DNA from: a virus
Strand: one strand, 5' to 3'
UHGV virus genome: UHGV-0069400
DNA: 25,507 bases
Part shown: piece by piece, positions 29 through 25,507 of the stretch
How positions within the stretch are numbered: the stretch's first letter is position 1
Layout of the letters: each line of letters begins with the position of its first letter
The notes under the pieces: model-generated
Seen by the model: only the letters and a program-made list of their open reading frames with translations
What the model was told of the DNA's origin: nothing
The model's database searches: none
Translations under genes and position numbers: made by a program

Positions 29-370
29 ATGGGGGATGCGGCAGAACTTAAGGCTGTGCTTGAGGATGGCGGTATCGCCCGAGTGAAAAAGCAGGATTTG
101 GGAAGCGATGAAATTTCCACACACCTGGAAGCTGGCAAGCTCGTCACAAAGTTGGCTCTCGACTGGCAGAACCGCATTAAATTTACACTGGACCATAACT
201 TCAGCCTTACCAGCGTCAAATTTGCGGATGAATTGCTTGAGCAGAACTCTGATATTGATAGTGAAGATGTTGCGCAGCGACTGGACGCAGATTTCTTCCT
301 GTTAACCAGTGAAATTTCGTGCCTGGTTGATGCTCTGGTAAATGCCCTGGGCGGAGAGGCTAAGCAGTGA
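29..370 (+). CDS. Hypothetical protein, possibly 5'-truncated by the window edge
   Basis: ORF of 113 codons from the first ATG; the frame is open back to nt 2, so the true start may lie upstream of the window. Its TGA stop overlaps the GTG start of the next gene (GTGA). No recognisable motif. Confidence 0.4.
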
Positions 371-3300
371 AAGAGCTGTGCTATGGATCTGTTTGCAGTG
401 GAATTGAAGCCGCGAGTATTGCCTGGGAACCGTTGGGTATGCGTCCGGCGTGGTTTGCTGAAATCGAGCCTTTTCCATCTGCCGTTCTTGCGCTCCGCTG
501 GCCCCATGTCGCCAACCTTGGCGACATGACAAAACTTGCCAAAAAAGTCTTGGCTGGGGAAATCGAATCCCCTGACGTGCTCGTCGGGGGAACACCATGT
601 TTTACCGCGGGGCATATGGTTCTTTGTAAAAATGGTTATAAACCAATAGAAGATGTTTGCCCTGGCGATTACGTAGTCAGTCATCTCGGGCGGTTACAAC
701 AAGTAAAAAGAGTTGGTTCAAAAATAGCTAATACGGGGTTACTTAATGCCGTTGGGCAGCCTTTAGGTATAAGAACAACCAATGACCATCCCTTCCTGGC
801 GGTTCGGTGGAAAGCCCAAAACACCCGGAAAAATGGCACATATTTTAAGAGAGAGTTGTTGTCTGAACCGGAATGGCGAGCAGCATGTGATATGCCGGGA
901 TATCAATGGTGTGCTCTAACTAATTTCAATATTGCATCTCCAGATATTTGTTCTCGGTTCTTGTCTGAAGAACAGGCTATGTATCTTGCGGGCGCTTATG
1001 TTGGCGATGGATATATTAGGAGATGGAGAGGTAAATCTAAGAAGGCGGTTGTTTTTGGCATAAATTGCCAGAAATTGAGAAAGTTTCATTGCCGCATACC
1101 AGAAAACATATTTTCCGTGGCAAGCGAAATCCGAGGGAGCATCAAAGTAACCTTGAATGATACGTGTTATGCCAATTGGCTTAATGAACATTTTGGCGAG
1201 TTAAGCCATGCTAAGCGTATCCCTGCATGGGTGATGTCGCATCCATTGCGTCATGTGTTTTTACAAGGCTATCTTGATACTGATGGGACACCAAGTGGTA
1301 AAGCGGGATTTAGAATTAATAGTGTTAGTCCTGCGCTTGCTTGGGGCGTTGCGGAGTTGTCACAGACTTGTGGTTATGTTTCTTCGGTCAGCTTTATTGA
1401 AGTTGAGCCCAAAAAAGTGATCGAGGAGCGCGTGGTAAATCAACGGAATTATTATCAGGTAACAATCTGCCCGCAGAAATTGTCACGTAAATCAAGATTG
1501 GCTCATGGAATGCTTTTACGAACAGTCAAAGAGTTTAAATCGGTAGGCCTAGATACTGTATACAACATAGAAGTCGAAGGTGATCATTCCTATATCCTCA
1601 ATGGTGCGGTGGTCCATAACTGTCAGGCATTCAGTATCGCTGGATTACGTGGCGGGCTTGATGATGAGCGTGGCGCGCTAACTTTAAAGTATGTGGAGCT
1701 TGCAAATGCAATTGACGACAAACGGGCTGAGTCATTTCTCAAACCAGCCGTTATCGTCTGGGAAAATGTCCCAGGAGTCTTGTCATCGGCAGATAACGCC
1801 TTCGGGTGTTTCCTTGCCGGATTGGCTGGAGAAGATGCGCCATTTGAACCAGGTGATCGACCTGAATCAGGAAAAAGTAACGCGTTCTGGCGGTGGGATG
1901 GCAAAACCGGTTGCCATGCTCCAAAGTGGCCGCAGTGTGGTTGTATTTATGGACCGCAGCGAAAGGTGGCCTGGAGAATCCTTGATGCCCAATACTTCGG
2001 AGTGGCACAACGACGCCGACGCGTGTTTGTTGTCGCAAGTGCTCGAACAGACCTCGATCCCGCAACGGTACTTTTTGAGTTCGAAGGCGTGCGCCGGGAT
2101 ATTGCGCCGAGCCGAAAAAAGAAGGAAATCGCTTCCGCCATTATTGCAAATGGCGCTGCAATCAGTGGCGAAAGCCTAAATCCATGCCTACACGCTGACA
2201 TGCCACCCGGTATGAAATCGACGAAAGCCGTAAACGCTTTCAGGATGGCAGCATTTGGGGAATATATTGACGATGAAACCGCATCGACAGTAAAGGCAAG
2301 AGATTTTAAAGATGCCACTGACCTTGCCGTTTTTAGCAGCACAGGAGCAGGTTTTTGGTCAGAAGGGCATGGTACATTGCGGGCACGTGAGCAAGAAAGC
2401 CATGAGCATCTTGTTACATTGGCTTTTCCTGAGCGTATGAGCGGTACACAACATGCTGCAACTAAGAATACTTCACCATCTCTAATGGCTAAAAGTCCAA
2501 CAGCTGTTTGCTATGAAGTAAGAAACGCAGAAGTAGCTGTCCGCCGTCTTACCCCTGTCGAATGTGAAAGGCTGCAAGGTTTTCCTGATGGACATACGTT
2601 GATCCCGACGGAAAAGCGTAAAAAAGTTAATTCAGATGAACTGGCATATCTTCGCAATCACTATCCAGATTTAAGCGAAGAAGAGGCCGCGATGCTTGCA
2701 GCTGACGGACCGCGTTACAAAGCGATCGGCAATAGTATGGCAATACCAGTAATGCGCTGGATTGGCGATCGGATTACTAAGGCCGTATGTCGGCAGAAAG
2801 AAAGAAGTGAAACAAAAGAGCGAAAAGTTAAACCAGCGGCAGAATTCGAGCGGTCCATATTCAAATGGGCTGGTGGAAAATTTGGTGTTCTGGAACAAAT
2901 CTTTCGCTATTTGCCAGAAGGGAAGCGCCTGATTGAACCTTTTGTTGGTGGCGGAGCTGTCTTCATGAATGCCGGATACCAGGAAAATCTGCTAAATGAT
3001 GTGAATGCTGACCTGATTAACTTTTACAAGACTCTGCAACGCGAGGCGAATTCACTTATCACTCTGGCACATTGTTTCTTCCAGGACTACAACACACAGG
3101 AAGGATACCTGGCAGTACGGAATGCGTTTAACAAACAAGTCTATGATGATTTACATCGCGCAGCGGCGTTTTTGTTCCTGAACCGACATTGTTTTAACGG
3201 ATTGACGCGTTACAACCAGGCCGGTGAGTTCAATGTCGGTTATGGGAAGTATAAAACTCCGTATTTCCCATTGCAGGAGATGGAAGCCTTCCTTGGTGCG

Positions 3301-3654
3301 GAAGGGCGTTCTGAGTTTGTATGTGGTGATTTTGCTGCGGTGATTGAAGCTGCCGGAGAAGGAGATGTCATCTTTTGCGATCCGCCGTATGAACCGCTCC
3401 CAAATACAGAGGGATTCACGAACTATTCCGGTCATGACTTTAAGTTTGAAGAGCAAAAACGCCTGGTGTCTCTGTTGACGGATGCTCATCGCCGAGGTGC
3501 AAAGGTTCTCATTACTAACAGTGGCGCGCCAAACATCAGAGAACTTTATCAGGACAGTGGCTTCAGAGTGGAACCTCTTTTTGCCAGACGTTCTGTGTCT
3601 TGTAAGGGGGACACTCGAGGTGTTGCTCATGACGTTATAGCGATATTGCTCTAA
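367..3654 (+). CDS. dmt: Bifunctional DNA methyltransferase: N-terminal C5-cytosine MTase (interrupted by an intein) fused to a C-terminal Dam-like N6-adenine MTase
   Basis: 1095-codon ORF, GTG start. C5-MTase motifs: motif [12 protein letters not shown], motif IV split as GGTP / intein / CQAFSIAG, then [40 protein letters not shown]-terminal Dam-like domain: [18 protein letters not shown]. Excising the intein leaves 754 aa. The symbol is assigned by analogy with the P1 bifunctional methyltransferase and is from memory. Confidence 0.8.
598..1620 (+). mobile_element. Intein (341 codons) with LAGLIDADG homing-endonuclease domain, inserted in C5-MTase motif IV
   Basis: Starts with Cys ([20 protein letters not shown], block A-like) directly after GGTP. 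Block B TTNDHPF; two LAGLIDADG motifs ([22 protein letters not shown]); blocks [23 protein letters not shown], ending His-Asn followed by +1 Cys (CQAFSIAG). In-frame joining restores [12 protein letters not shown]. The segment looks AT-richer than the flanks by eye. Confidence 0.85.
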
Positions 3655-4329: not shown

Positions 4330-4405
4330 GATGGTGTAGCTCAGCGGTTAGAGCGGTTGACTGTTAATCAACGGGTCGATGGTTCAAATCCATCCACCAT
4401 CGCCA
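4330..4405 (+). tRNA. tRNA-Asn (anticodon GTT)
   Basis: 76-nt cloverleaf folded by hand: acceptor GATGGTG/CACCATC, D-arm GCTC-AGCGGTTA-GAGC, anticodon arm GTTGA-CTGTTAA-TCAAC, T-arm GATGG-TTCAAAT-CCATC, discriminator G, encoded CCA. Confidence 0.9.
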
Positions 4406-4407
4406 AT

Positions 4408-4483
4408 GCCGGTTTAGCTCAGTTGGTAGAGCGCCTGCCTTGTAAGCAGGATGTCAGCGGTTCGAGTCCGTTAACCGGCACCA
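4408..4483 (+). tRNA. tRNA-Thr (anticodon TGT)
   Basis: 76-nt cloverleaf: acceptor GCCGGTT/AACCGGC, D-arm GCTC-AGTTGGTA-GAGC, anticodon arm CCTGC-CTTGTAA-GCAGG, T-arm AGCGG-TTCGAGT-CCGTT, encoded CCA. Starts 2 nt after tRNA-Asn. Confidence 0.9.
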
Positions 4484-5914: not shown

Positions 5915-5990
5915 GGCCCTTTAGCTCAGTGGTTAGAGCTGGCGACTCATAATCGCACGGTCACCGGTTCAAGTCCGGTAGGGGCCACCA
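5915..5990 (+). tRNA. tRNA-Ile2 (anticodon CAT, presumably lysidine-modified; elongator Met not excluded)
   Basis: 76-nt cloverleaf: acceptor GGCCCTT/AGGGGCC, D-arm GCTC-AGTGGTTA-GAGC, anticodon loop CTCATAA, T-arm ACCGG-TTCAAGT-CCGGT, encoded CCA. Body resembles E. coli ileX as I recall it; the G1-C72 pair argues against initiator tRNA. Confidence 0.85.
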
Positions 5991-21075: not shown

Positions 21076-21275
21076 CAATCGTAAAAACCCATACCGGCAC
21101 CGTGATCACCAAAGACGGTCCGAAGGTAAAAAAACTGCACCAAACAGAGCGGATGTGGGTCGTTGGCAAAAACGAGTTTTACCACAAAGAAACTGGACGC
21201 CGCCATTTTGCAGAAAATACGCGCCGCCGACTGCTGTTAGACACCATCAAGCCTATCGAGGTGAAGCATGTTTAA
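21072..21275 (+). CDS. Small hypothetical protein (67 aa)
   Basis: ATG overlaps the upstream TGA (ATGA). Basic protein, no motif. Confidence 0.4.
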   Translation: MTIVKTHTGTVITKDGPKVKKLHQTERMWVVGKNEFYHKETGRRHFAENTRRRLLLDTIKPIEVKHV

Positions 21276-21507
21276 ACAGAACGAAAAAGCTATCGCTCAA
21301 ATTGCTGATTATATCCCGCGTGCGTGCCGGGGTATGCAGTTGCAGGAAGCCAAAGCGCGCCTGGAGAAAAAAATTGCGCTCTATATTGATGACGGCTGTG
21401 ATTCCGCCGTTCTTAACGCGGCGTTCGCACCAGCTCTTAACTGTCACACTCGGGAGTCTTTTTTTTCGTGCATCGCAGCGCAACTCCGCCAAGGAGGCAA
21501 CCAGTGA
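21268..21507 (+). CDS. Small hypothetical protein (79 aa)
   Basis: ATG overlaps the end of the upstream ORF by 8 nt. Confidence 0.4.
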   Translation: MFKQNEKAIAQIADYIPRACRGMQLQEAKARLEKKIALYIDDGCDSAVLNAAFAPALNCHTRESFFSCIAAQLRQGGNQ

Positions 21508-22148
21508 GTAACCGTTTTTACATGATGTGCTTGCGTGAAACTGTGGGTAATAACGCCTCATTCCATTGCCATAACGGCAATGGTTACAGTTCTGATATCG
21601 ATCGAGCACATGTTTACACGCAGGAAGAAGCCCAAAAAGCCTGGAATTGTGGTCGAGATATCGATCAGCCTGTTTGCGCTGATAGCGTGGATGCAATGGC
21701 TGTGTGGCACGTTGATTGCCAGTACATCCCCACAGAAAGCCTGATTGAGTCAGATTGCACTGCGTATGTGGCCTACAAAAAAGGTAGCTGGAACGGCAAC
21801 GATGTTTACTGGCTTCAACACGGTGGATTGCCAACAGATGACTTCAGTAAAGCGACCATCTTTAGCGTCGCCAACAAAAACGAACCAGGAATAGTTTGGT
21901 TGCCATTTTCCATTGCTGATGCAGCAAAGCGTCGGACGTTCAATATCAATAACTTTAACCGCAGAACAATGGTTCAGGGCGCAGGTTTGGTCATGCCTGA
22001 CTGGTTGAAAGAGCAGAACAGAAGAAAGAAGTCGCGAAGCGGGAAGGTGCGTTGGAATTGTCCGCATTGCGGAAAAATAACCTGGCAGTACAGCCCATAT
22101 GATTTTGAAGGCTGTAGTGATTACAACTGTGAAGGATGGCGAGAATGA
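21504..22148 (+). CDS. Hypothetical protein with C-terminal zinc-ribbon
   Basis: ORF track starts at 21468; GTG 21504 has AAGGAGG 7 nt upstream and overlaps the previous stop (GTGA). C-terminal WNCPHCGKITWQ...CSDYNCEGW. Confidence 0.45.
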   Translation: MSNRFYMMCLRETVGNNASFHCHNGNGYSSDIDRAHVYTQEEAQKAWNCGRDIDQPVCADSVDAMAVWHVDCQYIPTESLIESDCTAYVAYKKGSWNGNDVYWLQHGGLPTDDFSKATIFSVANKNEPGIVWLPFSIADAAKRRTFNINNFNRRTMVQGAGLVMPDWLKEQNRRKKSRSGKVRWNCPHCGKITWQYSPYDFEGCSDYNCEGWRE

Positions 22149-22891
22149 CAATTGACTATCAGGCACTGCGTGAGGCGGCAGAGCGTGCAATTCCGGCAAT
22201 GGAACACCTGTTAATGTTGCCAGTTGATGATGATTTGTTAACTGAACAGGAACTTAAGGATTACGGTGTGGATATTGATGCGCTCAACGCCTTCAAATTT
22301 CTGACCGGACCAGAAACCGTGCTGGCACTACTGGATGAACGGGAAAGAAACCAGCAATACATCAAACGCCGCGACCAGGAGAACGAGGATATTGCGCTAA
22401 CGGTTGGGAGGCTGCTAATCGAAAACGGCCAGCTTGTTGCCGATACGCTACGCCACTTAGCTGATAACGAAATCGACTCTGATTATTTTGCTATCACCTC
22501 AACGAATGAGAACGGTACTGAAATTGATCATGAGATGGCTATTACCGATTACGCACTGCAAGCTGCCGGAACTGTAGACGAATTGGTTGCAGCGCTGGAA
22601 TCCGCAGAGAAGCGCATAGCAGAACTGGAAGCACGGGAAATAAAACCAGCCAAAGGCGAAGTTCTTGTCGTTGTATCTGGTTTTACTGGTTGCGGAAAAA
22701 GCGCCATTGCCGGGGAAATAGAAATCGCGATGAAGGCTATTGGTGTACCGGTTAAGTGGACTAATGGCGATGCAGAAAAGCGCATGACTGGCGCTGACTG
22801 GCTGACAGCGATTGAGATGTACAAACCAACTGTGCGCATCGCGGAAGTTAATGTGCCACGCGCCGCTGGCATTCGCATCAAAGGAGAGTGA
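22145..22891 (+). CDS. Hypothetical protein, possibly Ea22-like
   Basis: ATG 22145 overlaps the upstream TGA (ATGA); the ORF track starts at 22136. N-terminus MTIDYQALREAAERA resembles lambdoid Ea22-type proteins as I recall them. Confidence 0.4.
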   Translation: MTIDYQALREAAERAIPAMEHLLMLPVDDDLLTEQELKDYGVDIDALNAFKFLTGPETVLALLDERERNQQYIKRRDQENEDIALTVGRLLIENGQLVADTLRHLADNEIDSDYFAITSTNENGTEIDHEMAITDYALQAAGTVDELVAALESAEKRIAELEAREIKPAKGEVLVVVSGFTGCGKSAIAGEIEIAMKAIGVPVKWTNGDAEKRMTGADWLTAIEMYKPTVRIAEVNVPRAAGIRIKGE

Positions 22892-22896
22892 GTGAT

Positions 22897-23094
22897 ATGG
22901 ATAAAAACACCACTGCTTACTGGAATCTGTCACTTGATACCGAATGCCCCAAATGTGGTCACAATTTCGATCTGCTCTGTGATGCTGATTTCTGGGAGTT
23001 TTCTGGAGCAAAACAGGCATGTGAAGAAATAAAAGGTTACGAAACATGCTGCCCAGAATGTAACCATGAATTTAAAACAGATTTTGTGTATTGA
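22897..23094 (+). CDS. Small zinc-ribbon protein (66 aa)
   Basis: GGAG upstream of ATG 22897 (ORF track uses GTG 22888). Two CxxC pairs: CPKCGH and CCPECNH. Confidence 0.45.
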   Translation: MDKNTTAYWNLSLDTECPKCGHNFDLLCDADFWEFSGAKQACEEIKGYETCCPECNHEFKTDFVY

Positions 23095-23104
23095 GGCATA
23101 ACGA

Positions 23105-24295
23105 ATGACCACTTTTACTAAAGAACAATTAATAGAGATAATTAAGCGCAATATAACGGTTATGGATCGTTATCCTGATTTAGTAACTGCACAAATGGAT
23201 CTGGAAGTATACAAAATCGCGCTGGCATCACTGGAAGCAGAACCAGTTGCTTATATTTTCAAACATCCGGCCGGGAAATTATTCTGGGCTTTAACGGATG
23301 AAAGCAATAAAGAGCAACCGGACGTTATTCCTGTTTATGCTGACTCACCTGCGCCGGTTGTGCCGGATGAAATAGACGTAAACGATGTACCAAGGGCGGT
23401 GACATATTTCAAGACACACAGAGATTGTTACGCAGATGGCTGGAACGCCTGCCGCGCCGCCATGCTTCAGTCCGGAAACTTTCGGGAAAATAAGAATTCG
23501 TCAACCAATAATTTTCGGGAAATCGCGGAAACGTCAACCAACTATCCGGTAATTCCTAGTGAGGTGTTGTCCGCAATCCTGAAGGTTGCCAAGATTCGTG
23601 CCGATTTCGATGATTTTGACGGTGACAGGCGAGGTATCGGTGATTGTCTGGATGAGGCTGAGCAAGAGCTTATCGTTACCATTAACAAATATGCCAGTCA
23701 GTTGGCAGCAGAACCGATAGCGACTAATGACGTTCGAGAGCAAACAGCCGTTCCGCCAGTTCCTGTAATACAGGCTGATGTCGCGCAGGCAATTGAAAAA
23801 CTCAAACGGAAATTAGTGGAATGCAATCGCTATAACTACTGCGCAGATGCAGTTAAGGGCGTTGAGTATGCCTGCCACGCTGCCATGCTTCAGGGTAGCC
23901 AACCTGTAAGCCAAACTTACAAGTTTCCAGTTAATACACCTTGCCAGGATGCGCCAGCCCATATCTGGCTGCAAACAGCTGGAGTATGGCCAGAAGATGG
24001 CGAGTTAAGCGAATTAACGTGGTGCAGCCACAATCAGCACCATGATGACACGCTATATGTTCGAGCTGACTTGGTAAATGGCAATTCTCAGGTAACTCCG
24101 GATGGTTGGATAAGCTGTAGTGAGCGAATGCCCGCTCAAGATGATTGGATTTTAATTTATTCAAAGCACGGTGAGTATATGGCAGGACAGGTGCAAGGGG
24201 AATACGTGGAGTTGAGCGACGGCACTTTATCCTGGTTAGGGAACGCCTTGTTCTGGATGCTGCTACCAGAACCTCCCCAGGAGGCAGGTCAATGA
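23105..24295 (+). CDS. Hypothetical protein with internal repeats and DUF551-like C-terminus
   Basis: 396 codons. GAGG upstream. Repeated ACRAAMLQSG / ACHAAMLQGS segments. C-terminal GWISCSERMPAQDDWILIY...WMLLPEPP resembles the DUF551 pattern as I recall it. Confidence 0.45.
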   Translation: MTTFTKEQLIEIIKRNITVMDRYPDLVTAQMDLEVYKIALASLEAEPVAYIFKHPAGKLFWALTDESNKEQPDVIPVYADSPAPVVPDEIDVNDVPRAVTYFKTHRDCYADGWNACRAAMLQSGNFRENKNSSTNNFREIAETSTNYPVIPSEVLSAILKVAKIRADFDDFDGDRRGIGDCLDEAEQELIVTINKYASQLAAEPIATNDVREQTAVPPVPVIQADVAQAIEKLKRKLVECNRYNYCADAVKGVEYACHAAMLQGSQPVSQTYKFPVNTPCQDAPAHIWLQTAGVWPEDGELSELTWCSHNQHHDDTLYVRADLVNGNSQVTPDGWISCSERMPAQDDWILIYSKHGEYMAGQVQGEYVELSDGTLSWLGNALFWMLLPEPPQEAGQ

Positions 24296-24375
24296 GCTGG
24301 CCTGAAGCATTCGCAACGGTAGGAATTGTGATGGCGGCAGCACTGGGTTTGTATTCAATTTGTCGCTGGTGGTAA
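24292..24375 (+). CDS. Small hydrophobic peptide (27 aa)
   Basis: Not in the supplied ORF track. ATG overlaps the upstream TGA. Translation MSWPEAFATVGIVMAAALGLYSICRWW. Confidence 0.3.
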   Translation: MSWPEAFATVGIVMAAALGLYSICRWW

Positions 24376-24377
24376 CG

Positions 24378-24611
24378 ATGGGGAAATTAACTTTTGTAGT
24401 CGAATTTGAGGATGGTAAAGAGCCACCTGTTAGCGCCAATCTTGATGTTGCTGGTGGAAGGCTTGTTTCGGTTCTATTTGGTGACTACCGAGATGACTTC
24501 TTCCAACCAGAAGAAGTTGATGTAGTGCGAGAGGCATTAAACGAGTTAAGTGTTGACAACGATGATGCTCATGCGGAAATCATCCAAAAAATGGAACTGC
24601 TAACTCACTAA
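24378..24611 (+). CDS. Small acidic hypothetical protein (77 aa)
   Basis: ORF track starts at 24360; the in-frame ATG at 24378 follows the stop of the preceding peptide. Confidence 0.35.
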   Translation: MGKLTFVVEFEDGKEPPVSANLDVAGGRLVSVLFGDYRDDFFQPEEVDVVREALNELSVDNDDAHAEIIQKMELLTH

Positions 24612-24659
24612 ATTATCAATTATGGTGCTATAACCTACGACACCGAGAGAAAATTTATA

Positions 24660-24782
24660 ATGTCAAAAGTAAATGTTTTGATTTTTTCAGCAATTGTTGG
24701 CTTTGGTTTTACTGCCGGAGTGCAGATTTATATTACGTGGGAAAAAATCATCAACTACGCATGGAGTTGTTTTATTAAGTGA
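24660..24782 (+). CDS. Small membrane protein (40 aa)
   Basis: Not in the supplied ORF track. Translation MSKVNVLIFSAIVGFGFTAGVQIYITWEKIINYAWSCFIK. Lies in the AT-richer 3' segment. Confidence 0.3.
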   Translation: MSKVNVLIFSAIVGFGFTAGVQIYITWEKIINYAWSCFIK

Positions 24783-24789
24783 GGTAAGT

Positions 24790-25050
24790 ATGTGGAGAGG
24801 TAATAATCATGGCAAAAGCCAGATGATACTTACCGAATATAAGCTAGACCACAAAACCAATAAATCACGCTCAGTATATTTGCTCCGGCACAATAGTCGC
24901 GTAAGAAATACCGTGCTGGAACAAAATCTGACAGTTGAAATGGATAATTACGGGGGATTCAAGCCAACAATTTCACTTGATGATTTTCCTCGTGGTTTAA
25001 GCGAAAGAGAAGCAATGCTGAAATTAGCAGAATGGCTACAAAACACTTGA
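24790..25050 (+). CDS. Small hypothetical protein (86 aa)
   Basis: ORF track starts at 24694; GAGG 5 nt upstream of ATG 24790. Confidence 0.35.
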   Translation: MWRGNNHGKSQMILTEYKLDHKTNKSRSVYLLRHNSRVRNTVLEQNLTVEMDNYGGFKPTISLDDFPRGLSEREAMLKLAEWLQNT

Positions 25051-25063
25051 GGGAGGAAGAAAA

Positions 25064-25507
25064 ATGGATAGACAAAAGGTAAAGTCAGGACTGGGATTAA
25101 TGTTCTGGGGAAACATTGTGGCATTATTTGCAGTAATTCCAATTCTGGGAGTAATTGCAGCTCTTGTTGGCGGAATCATGGAATTGATTGCAATTGTAAA
25201 TCTGAGAAAACAAAGTGAAAATTATAACAATGCATTTTGGTTTACAATTGCCGGAATTGTGCTTGGGCTCTTCGCCGGTGGAGATGGATTATGGGGAACA
25301 GCGATATCAATTCTCCATGGCCTTGCAACATTGGGTGCAACCTACTACATTTGCACAGCAACAGAGGAATGTGTAAGTATAGTATCTTATGAGGTAGCAG
25401 ATTATTGCCACAGCGTATGCAACTGGTATGTAACTTGTATGGTTATTTCATTGGCGATCAGTGTTGTGATGCTCGTATTTTCAATTATTCCAGTACTTGG
25501 ATTTATC
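25064..25507 (+). CDS. Multi-pass membrane protein, 3'-truncated by the window edge
   Basis: Not in the supplied ORF track. GGGAGG upstream of ATG 25064. 148 codons with no stop before the window end; several hydrophobic segments and a Cys-rich loop. Confidence 0.5.
   Translation, partial: MDRQKVKSGLGLMFWGNIVALFAVIPILGVIAALVGGIMELIAIVNLRKQSENYNNAFWFTIAGIVLGLFAGGDGLWGTAISILHGLATLGATYYICTATEECVSIVSYEVADYCHSVCNWYVTCMVISLAISVVMLVFSIIPVLGFI

Follow-up and report, generated by a model that had tools for sequence, protein, structure and literature searches.

A class-1 intein with a putative homing endonuclease at the catalytic Pro-Cys of the Dmt DNA methyltransferase of P1-like phage-plasmids

The virus genome UHGV-0069400 (UHGV), analysed here as one strand of 25,507 nucleotides (nt) that we call the window, carries an insert in its DNA methyltransferase gene dmt. 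By sequence comparison the window encodes Dmt, with a C5-cytosine methyltransferase half and a Dam adenine methyltransferase half, of a P1-like Escherichia coli phage-plasmid; the GTG start of the gene overlaps the end of hrdC/rdgC. The insert, 1023 nt long, consists of 341 in-frame codons, beginning with a cysteine codon (TGT) at 598-600 and ending in His-Asn at 1615-1620. Judged by its sequence and predicted fold, it is a true class-1 intein that contains a LAGLIDADG homing endonuclease and lies between Pro77, its -1 residue, and the catalytic cysteine of methyltransferase motif IV. The features of the gene are given below, with residues D137, K206 and the like numbered within the intein; throughout, a slash in a motif marks a splice junction or insertion point.

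367..3654, plus strand: dmt precursor open reading frame (ORF), 1095 amino acids (aa): C5-cytosine methyltransferase, intein and Dam adenine methyltransferase (ORF list, Pfam and NCBIfam)
367..597, plus strand: N-extein, aa 1-77; motif I region (GSVCSGIEA) and motif IV up to the junction (GGTP) (alignments with P1 Dmt and M.HhaI)
494..597, plus strand: N-flank tract with intein-linked single-nucleotide polymorphisms (SNPs), probably a co-conversion tract; A at -1 (nt 597), C at -22, T at -48, T at -104
598..1620, plus strand: class-1 intein, 341 aa; LAGLIDADG homing-endonuclease domain within a Hint splicing domain (profiles, P1 alignment, model)
598..636, plus strand: block A, Cys1 at 598-600; C1, F2, A4, G5 and G13 invariant in an 11-sequence family alignment
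766..798, plus strand: block B, T61-N-D-H64; T61 at 778-780 and H64 at 787-789, both invariant in the 11-sequence alignment
958..1473, plus strand: LAGLIDADG endonuclease domain, approximate extent, intein aa about 121-292 (model layout, Pfam LAGLIDADG_3, Foldseek)
979..1023, plus strand: LAGLIDADG motif 1, block C, LAGAYVGD137G; putative catalytic D137 at 1006-1008, at least 90% conserved; G132 and G138 invariant
1204..1233, plus strand: block D with Lys206; K206 at 1213-1215, invariant in the 11-sequence alignment
1255..1290, plus strand: LAGLIDADG motif 2, block E, FLQGYLDTD229G; putative catalytic D229 at 1282-1284, at least 90% conserved; G224 and G230 invariant
1555..1620, plus strand: blocks F and G (G: NGAVVH340N341); H340 at 1615-1617, N341 at 1618-1620, N341 invariant (TIGR01443)
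1621..1623, plus strand: Cys+1 (TGT), directly after His-Asn (M.HhaI alignment)
1621..2790, plus strand: C-extein, C5-methyltransferase part (PF00145, TIGR00675, M.HhaI alignment)
From 1621, plus strand: second half of motif IV, CQAFS, which starts the C-extein (M.HhaI alignment)
1762-1770, plus strand: motif VI, ENV, within the C-extein
2008-2022, plus strand: motif VIII, QRRRR, within the C-extein
About 2116-2541, plus strand: variable target-recognition region, Dmt aa about 584-725 (comparison with OP279344)
2542-2586, plus strand: motif IX segment, within the C-extein (M.HhaI alignment)
2728-2751, plus strand: motif X, GNSMAIPV, within the C-extein
2854..3642, plus strand: Dam-family N6-adenine methyltransferase domain, aa 830-1092 (TIGR00571, PF02086)

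The limits of the insert are set by comparison with reference phage P1, whose DNA matches the dmt region in two pieces and leaves out exactly the insert. At the protein level the alignment with P1 Dmt contains a single gap of exactly 341 residues, VLVWGTP/CQAFSIAG in P1 corresponding to VLVGGTP, the 341 residues and CQAFSIAG in the window. An earlier, sequence-only reading of this DNA had proposed the same coordinates, 598-1620, and a 341-codon in-frame insert with Cys1, a block B T..H, two LAGLIDADG motifs, His-Asn and a +1 Cys, and all of this proved correct. The profile search that it suggested gave matches on the insert alone that exceed the Pfam cut-offs for LAGLIDADG_3 (37.2 bits, cut-off 22.5) and, narrowly, Hint_2 (28.5 bits, cut-off 28.4), as well as that for the intein C-terminal model TIGR01443 intein_Cterm (25.9 bits, cut-off 15.6); the match to the Intein_splicing profile falls below its cut-off. 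When the intein is aligned with ten relatives of 23-52% identity, which gives the 11-sequence family alignment used above, Cys+1 is also invariant. That reading had described the insert as AT-richer than its host gene, which is true, the GC content and third-position GC content (GC3) being 0.430 and 0.372 in the insert, 0.550 and 0.519 in the N-extein and 0.484 and 0.414 in the C-extein. The AT-richness is real but the effect is modest, just 2.2% of 1023-nt windows within this sequence being equally AT-rich.

Comparison of the intein with PDB entries by sequence gave only weak matches, to the C-terminus of the Spl DnaX mini-intein (E=0.0015) and to PI-PkoII (E=0.023), and a fold search was therefore needed; in a phmmer alignment it is the end of the intein, blocks F and G, that matches the Spl DnaX C-terminus. 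An AlphaFold2 model built from the family alignment has a mean predicted local distance difference test (pLDDT) score of 92 and a predicted template modelling (pTM) score of 0.89. The best PDB matches of this model in Foldseek are full-length LAGLIDADG inteins, namely PI-SceI (E=1.6e-17), TliVMA, PhoVMA, PI-PfuI and PI-PkoII. Its central domain also matches the free LAGLIDADG enzymes I-SceI, I-OnuI and I-AniI, and its Hint part matches the mini-inteins 4oz6 and 6mx6. Residues 124-292 are predicted to form the alpha-beta-beta-alpha-beta-beta-alpha pseudo-dimer layout, which matches the PI-SceI endonuclease domain too. The model predicts the Hint fold for the splicing part of the insert.

Other kinds of insertion were considered and rejected. 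A group I or II intron or an insertion sequence (IS element) is ruled out by an insert that is in frame, contains no stop codons and has protein-level homology over its full length. The Rfam scan of the window found nothing RNA-like within 598-1620. A bacterial intein-like (BIL) domain is a Hint domain without an endonuclease, found at a variable, non-conserved position of its host. It is ruled out here by the presence of an endonuclease, the occupation of the most conserved host motif and a canonical HN/C junction, and the BIL structure 2lwy is matched only at E=0.97 in the sequence comparison with PDB. An opposite-strand ORF of 91 aa inside the intein (916-1191) is presumed to be spurious.

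The dmt region of the window is 98-99% identical to those of RCS47 and vB_EcoM-Ro157c2YLVW, as is Dmt to its RCS47 counterpart (98-99%), and dmt of P1 sits at the same genomic place, between hrdC and tRNA genes. The entire window aligns collinearly with the E. coli plasmid pCombat11I9-3, the 25,507 nt containing 348 mismatches, and there the PGAP name of the gene is only "Dam family site-specific DNA-(adenine-N6)-methyltransferase". The sequence-only reading had correctly assigned the host to the phage C5-cytosine methyltransferases and overlooked that it is the bifunctional P1 Dmt with a Dam half. PF00145 matches the N-terminal part of Dmt with 104 bits and TIGR00675 matches as well; the Dam half (aa 830-1092) is matched by TIGR00571 (249 bits, cut-off 115) and PF02086 (191 bits, cut-off 22). 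Once the exteins are joined, they align with M.HhaI across motifs I-VI, VIII, IX and X, in order, although motif I of Dmt is atypical (SGIEA, not GxGG). The GenBank note for P1 Dmt (AF234172, 754 aa) describes a bifunctional DNA methyltransferase acting on GATC "and perhaps at C5 cytosine", and our literature search found no paper showing 5-methylcytosine (m5C) activity of P1 Dmt. In the reference laboratory P1 (AF234172; mod749::IS5 c1.100) codon 74 of dmt is Trp, not Gly, giving a motif IV of WGTPCQ in place of GGTPCQ; the codon corresponds to window nt 586-588, and the T concerned is seen in only one of 58 intein-less loci. With so rare a residue in motif IV, the textbook P1 Dmt may have an unusual or impaired C5 half.

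The part of the C5 half that separates motif VIII from motif IX is variable and falls into four length classes, the distance from Cys+1 to where the Dam part begins being 924, 1170, 1329 or 1494 nt. The target-recognition-region sequence is unrelated between classes, for example between the window and OP279344. This looks like the swapping of target-recognition domains, and hence of methylation specificity, among P1-like elements.

The position of the intein within motif IV is of particular interest. Motif IV of the joined exteins pairs with GFP-CQAFSISG of M.HhaI, the paired segment in the alignment being DILCAGFPCQAFSISG, and the Cys of its PCQ we take to be Cys81, which as the nucleophile attacks the target cytosine at C6. 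Cys+1 of the intein aligns with this residue, in agreement with the earlier proposal that the two are one and the same cysteine. Since motif IV is split by 341 residues in the precursor, we infer that the C5 activity of Dmt must depend on splicing. The Dam half, more than 400 residues away from the insert, may fold independently and need no splicing.

The identity of the intein and its exact insertion point follow directly from profiles, alignments and the model, and the splicing chemistry and DNA cleavage set out here are inferred. A precursor of 122 kDa would be translated first. Cys1 would attack the Pro77 carbonyl in an N-S acyl shift, Cys+1 would take over the N-extein by trans-thioesterification, and cyclisation of Asn341 would free an intein of 38 kDa. 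A final S-N shift would yield an 83-kDa Dmt with a restored PCQ motif, in which Cys+1 would now serve as the catalytic cysteine of motif IV. The calculated masses (121.7 kDa for the precursor, 83.3 kDa for spliced Dmt and 38.4 kDa for the intein) agree with the figures of about 120, 83 and 38 kDa given beforehand. When two P1-like elements share a cell, the free intein would cut the intein-less dmt junction, ...GGAACACCT followed at the insertion point by TGTCAGGCATTC..., and repair of the cut would copy the intein, together with short flanks, into the empty allele.

Inteins at this site extend far beyond P1. The sequence-only reading had called an intein in a DNA-modification enzyme of a temperate phage unusual, and this did not hold. 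Relatives at 47-52% identity were recovered by a word-indexed search, nearly all of them within PF00145 proteins, and an exhaustive phmmer search of 1.84 billion cluster representatives, each standing for a protein cluster at 50% identity, returned 4508 matches at E<=1e-3, 190 of them at E<=1e-30. Among the best 150 matches 138 are full-length, and these have Cys1 in every case (138/138), terminal HN in 126, Pro at -1 in 126 and Cys+1 in 134. The C...S that follows the intein at the Pro/Cys site of motif IV is present in 129 of the 138, so that at least 129 diverged clusters, a lower bound drawn from the best 150 matches, hold inteins at this site, as do several deposited phage genomes. The latter include Mannheimia phage vB_MhS_587AP2, Propionibacterium phage B22 (gp50), Lactobacillus phage Nyseid and, with its junction read directly, the E. 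coli jumbo phage A4; phages ph0011, UE-S1 and TH47 have matches of similar identity inside cytosine-methyltransferase genes, as judged from gene context only. Species-representative genomes with the same context come from Rhizobiales, Lachnospiraceae, Bifidobacteriaceae, Actinomycetes, Bacteroidales, Cyanobacteria and others. The regular expression used to read junctions at 80 genome-contig loci is crude, misplacing some N-termini and missing weak or archaeal matches, and its yield is a lower bound; the matches that it missed are probably other inteins. By these sequence criteria the Dmt intein belongs to a large and barely described family with members at this site in numerous phages and bacteria.

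Inteins in phage DNA methylases had, moreover, already been published. N6_N4 methylases with inteins, DNMT-1 and DNMT-2, are listed for actinophages (Kelley et al. 2016, PMC5050341), one methylase family has been analysed with the argument that the intein is less diverged than its extein (Gosselin et al. 2023, PMC9957025), and C-5 methylase (IPR001525) is listed among intein hosts, though with neither site nor mechanism (bioRxiv 10.1101/2025.01.02.630785). Novikova et al. 2016 do not mention methylases. Our literature search, which did not reach most subscription journals, found neither an intein in P1, Punavirus or dmt nor a description of the PCQ site as a general intein target.

The closest named relative is that of vB_MhS_587AP2 (KP137435, 964-3284; protein P0011), at 48% identity. 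The remainder of its methylase is a separate coding sequence, which is followed by an HNH homing endonuclease gene; the arrangement suggests a methylase that is decaying after two invasions. Members of the P0011 cluster are reported on 578 Mannheimia haemolytica contigs. Two inteins of 22-29% identity have hosts without a precomputed PF00145 annotation: a hypothetical protein of Parvibaculum indicum (P0022; ...FHPP/C...VHN/CTRLC) and a metagenomic HNH-domain protein (P0025; ...KNT/C...VHN/CQYCGH). They suggest that the lineage occasionally jumps to other Cys-containing sites.

Within P1-like elements the intein is common and patchy. PLSDB holds 497 plasmid records with the dmt junction region, of which 361 are uninterrupted and about 133, or about 27%, have the intein with at least 95% DNA identity. 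It is found in 152 of 5426 complete E. coli genomes, 148 times on plasmids and five times on the chromosome; the five chromosomal matches (of 153) could be integrated P1-like elements or assembly artefacts. For population analysis, 80 dmt loci taken from IMG/VR were combined with those of P1, RCS47, OP279344 and the window; a usable 5' part was present in 81 loci, of which 23 carry the intein and 58 do not. Intein-free homologues that align across the junction, for which the earlier reading had asked, are therefore plentiful: P1 Dmt, the 361 PLSDB junctions and these 58 loci. Three of the four length classes hold the intein (12 of 28 loci in the 924-nt class, 10 of 45 in the 1170-nt class and one of three in the 1329-nt class, against none of five in the 1494-nt class), and each of the three also has intein-less members. 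A laboratory-derived, intein-containing P1 has already been deposited: OP279344.1 ("Escherichia phage P1 isolate del res del mod", host MG1655 Z1) has the intein at 99.4% aa identity in a dmt of the 924-nt class, in a gene annotated simply as "Dmt".

The P1-type inteins are intact. Stop codons and indels are absent from all 23, and C1, T61, H64, D137, K206, D229, H340 and N341 are unchanged in every one, while Cys+1 is TGT in 81 of 81 dmt loci. Among the 23 inteins, 11 polymorphic sites are synonymous and 13 are non-synonymous (pN/pS, the ratio of non-synonymous to synonymous polymorphism, 0.34), and none touches a catalytic residue. The intein is also 2.5-6 times less diverse than its own flanks, nucleotide diversity among the intein-containing alleles being 0.0056 for the intein, 0.0345 for the N-extein, 0.0144 for the first 480 nt of the C-extein and 0.0177 for the Dam part. 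In the Dam part the nearest neighbour of 20 of the 23 intein-containing alleles is an intein-less one.

The flanks of the intein carry a signature of their own. The base at -1, the third position of the Pro77 codon, is A in 23 of 23 intein-containing loci and T in 58 of 58 intein-less loci (naive Fisher p about 1e-20, or 7e-19 on unique haplotypes, for sequences that are not independent), and the variants at -22, -48 and -104 are found in 19 of the 23 and in none of the intein-less loci. No uninterrupted junction with CCA or intein-type flanks was present in PLSDB. Intein-less alleles have two local junction haplotypes, ...GGAACACCT and ...GGTACGCCT, each continuing across the insertion point with TGTCAGGC..., and every intein-containing allele falls into one of them; the ends of the donor-type tract differ between intein-containing alleles. 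Between the window and P1, 18 of the 50 differences lie within gene nt 201-400, which span the junction at nt 231. Low diversity together with linked flank SNPs indicates that the intein spread recently. We conclude from these sequences that it is a young element which entered diverged dmt alleles together with short donor flanks, in keeping with the lower GC content of the insert relative to the exteins and with the sequence-only reading that the insert had been acquired as a mobile element. Its low diversity, its linked flank SNPs and its presence in three length classes suggest that the spread was probably driven by homing with co-conversion, a pattern that is also compatible with plain recombination.

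Taken together, these observations lead us to favour, with good though not full confidence, the interpretation of the insert as a class-1 intein that is able to splice and that its LAGLIDADG domain still carries, or until very recently carried, into empty dmt junctions by homing. Several points weigh against this interpretation and lend themselves to other explanations. The mobility signatures could result from ordinary homologous recombination among co-resident P1-like plasmids, in which case an intein that splices, and whose endonuclease is dead or dying, would have moved by recombination between such plasmids and not by homing. The mosaic nature of dmt, with four length classes shuffled against the flanks and two junction haplotypes with recombinant patterns, fits this explanation, as do the roughly 73% of alleles that are still empty. 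So does the distribution of polymorphism, the endonuclease domain having four synonymous and nine non-synonymous sites and the Hint parts seven and four, numbers that come from our own partition of the listed sites and are too small for testing. Against this, D137, D229 and K206 are not only invariant in the 23 inteins but conserved in relatives down to about 29% identity, and the absence of stops and indels and the low diversity relative to the flanks also argue for a maintained element; the -1 base and the short private N-flank tract resemble co-conversion from a double-strand break at the junction. We therefore regard movement by recombination alone as unlikely.

The remaining points concern splicing. 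Our knowledge of both splicing and DNA cleavage by this intein derives from sequence and a structural model. Proline at -1 blocks or impairs most inteins tested (PMC6486613), and splicing of Dmt could accordingly be slow or inefficient. In addition, dmt was scored as non-essential (PMC10695390) and is needed only in Dam- hosts (PMC12707154), and the C5 activity of P1 Dmt is only presumed, as the "perhaps" of its GenBank note implies. With dmt dispensable in dam+ hosts and C5 activity presumed, selection for splicing may be weak. It can thus be imagined that the insert no longer splices at all, the C5 half being permanently disabled and tolerated while the Dam half works alone and C5 methylation is dispensable. 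Signs of decay are consistent with such a scenario: the N-extein frame is broken in two of the 23 intein-containing alleles, both from IMG/VR, and the C-extein of the Mannheimia homologue in vB_MhS_587AP2 is frameshifted or degraded just after HN/CQ. Yet every splicing residue is invariant, the seven synonymous and four non-synonymous sites of the Hint parts show mostly synonymous change, and the dmt frame is intact in 21 of the 23 alleles, as checked with the last one to three sense codons excluded. Furthermore, Pro at -1 is native in 126 of 138 diverged members, which argues for adaptation of the family to this residue. A permanently unspliced insert thus seems improbable to us. As to the two broken alleles, L081 has a stop at N-extein codon 61, and L053 has one at codon 8 and a gapped N-extein alignment to the window; the intein ORF is intact in both.

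The sequence-only reading had proposed that the intein may gate anti-restriction methylation. Conditional splicing is known for some other inteins. In Dmt, a splicing gate responding to redox state (via a Cys1-Cys+1 disulfide), temperature or stress could time C5 methylation during lytic growth or establishment. There is a cysteine at both junction nucleophile positions, and the unfavourable Pro at -1 could render splicing rate-limiting (PMC6486613). This idea is speculation on which the sequence data do not bear; the patchy presence (27-28%) and the signatures of a selfish element are explained without any benefit to the host, and the same phage lineage thrives without the intein. We consider such a gate highly improbable.

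Returning to the interpretation of a splicing-competent, homing intein, we tentatively raise the possibility, itself open to considerable doubt, that the P1-type Dmt inteins and the wider motif IV inteins evolved to splice with Pro at -1 and still home among E. coli P1-like phage-plasmids. In a stronger and wholly speculative version, the difficult Pro-Cys junction would make splicing slow or redox-conditional, and cytosine methylation would be delayed relative to adenine methylation.

The near-invariant Pro at -1, a context in which most engineered or natural inteins splice poorly or not at all (PMC6486613), is the most interesting feature of the family and of practical interest for protein engineering, which could find here, if the tentative proposal is true, a source of Pro(-1)-tolerant splicing domains. 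The proposal would also mean that a native system of intein homing and splicing exists in E. coli with all of P1 genetics at hand. Standard laboratory E. coli is, to our knowledge, usually regarded as intein-free, and P1, which ranks among the phages most amenable to genetic work, would now offer an intein and homing endonuclease that are probably active. The +1 nucleophile is the catalytic cysteine of the enzyme, and methylase activity would therefore read out splicing directly. There is also an annotation gap, in that a 38-kDa selfish element lies, in over 130 plasmid records and in 152 complete E. coli genomes, inside a gene called no more than "Dam family methyltransferase". Finally, homing in phages and in various bacterial phyla appears to have made wide use of the PCQ codons of C5-methyltransferases as a target.

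Elsewhere in the window, three tRNA genes (4330-4405, 4408-4483 and 5915-5990; Asn-GTT, Thr-TGT and one with a CAT anticodon) correspond to the P1 tRNA genes downstream of dmt, and the three tRNAs are the sole Rfam matches. The CAT-anticodon tRNA is called Met by ARAGORN and Ile by PGAP in the matching plasmid. The region from about 21200 to 25507 corresponds to ead/Ea22-like, DUF551 and small hypothetical proteins encoded in that plasmid. Named P1-like phages span only about 80% of the window; about a fifth is unshared, the distal end being one candidate for it.

How does the Dmt intein compare with known systems? One point of reference is P1 itself (AF234172; annotation of Lobocka et al. 2004), which has the same bifunctional C5 and Dam protein, 98% identical over the exteins; it is intein-less, has the other junction haplotype (GGT ACG CCT) and carries the unique G74W change in motif IV. 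With the structurally characterised inteins PI-SceI (the Sce VMA1 intein) and the archaeal PI-PfuI, PI-PkoII and TliVMA, the Dmt intein shares the two-part architecture of a two-motif LAGLIDADG domain inside Hint and the predicted class-1 chemistry (Cys1, block B TxxH, terminal HN, Cys+1), at only 11-17% sequence identity. With 341 aa it is shorter than these (454-537 aa), it natively has Pro at -1, unlike them, and its host is a C5-methyltransferase, whereas theirs are an ATPase, a ribonucleotide reductase and a polymerase.

The methylase inteins of actinobacteriophages are likewise LAGLIDADG inteins in orphan phage methyltransferases, patchy in distribution and less diverged than their exteins, and the same argument for recent transfer applies to them and to the Dmt intein. 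The described cases are mainly in N6/N4 methylases, with none in P1-like phages or Enterobacteria, and the intein of mycobacteriophage Pacc40 gp60, an N4/N6 methylase, is a distant relative at a different site (...MHV/C...KN/CPLQ). A further group is that of the unannotated same-site C5-methyltransferase inteins of the Mannheimia phage, B22, Nyseid, A4 and many bacteria and metagenome-assembled genomes, which share the identical insertion point (xxP/C...HN/CQxxS) and full-length homology at 27-57% identity, and which can for that reason be regarded as intein alleles of one family. Their hosts are single-domain methyltransferases without a Dam fusion, unlike Dmt, and with even the closest relatives no more than 57% identical, the P1 lineage forms a distinct branch of this family.

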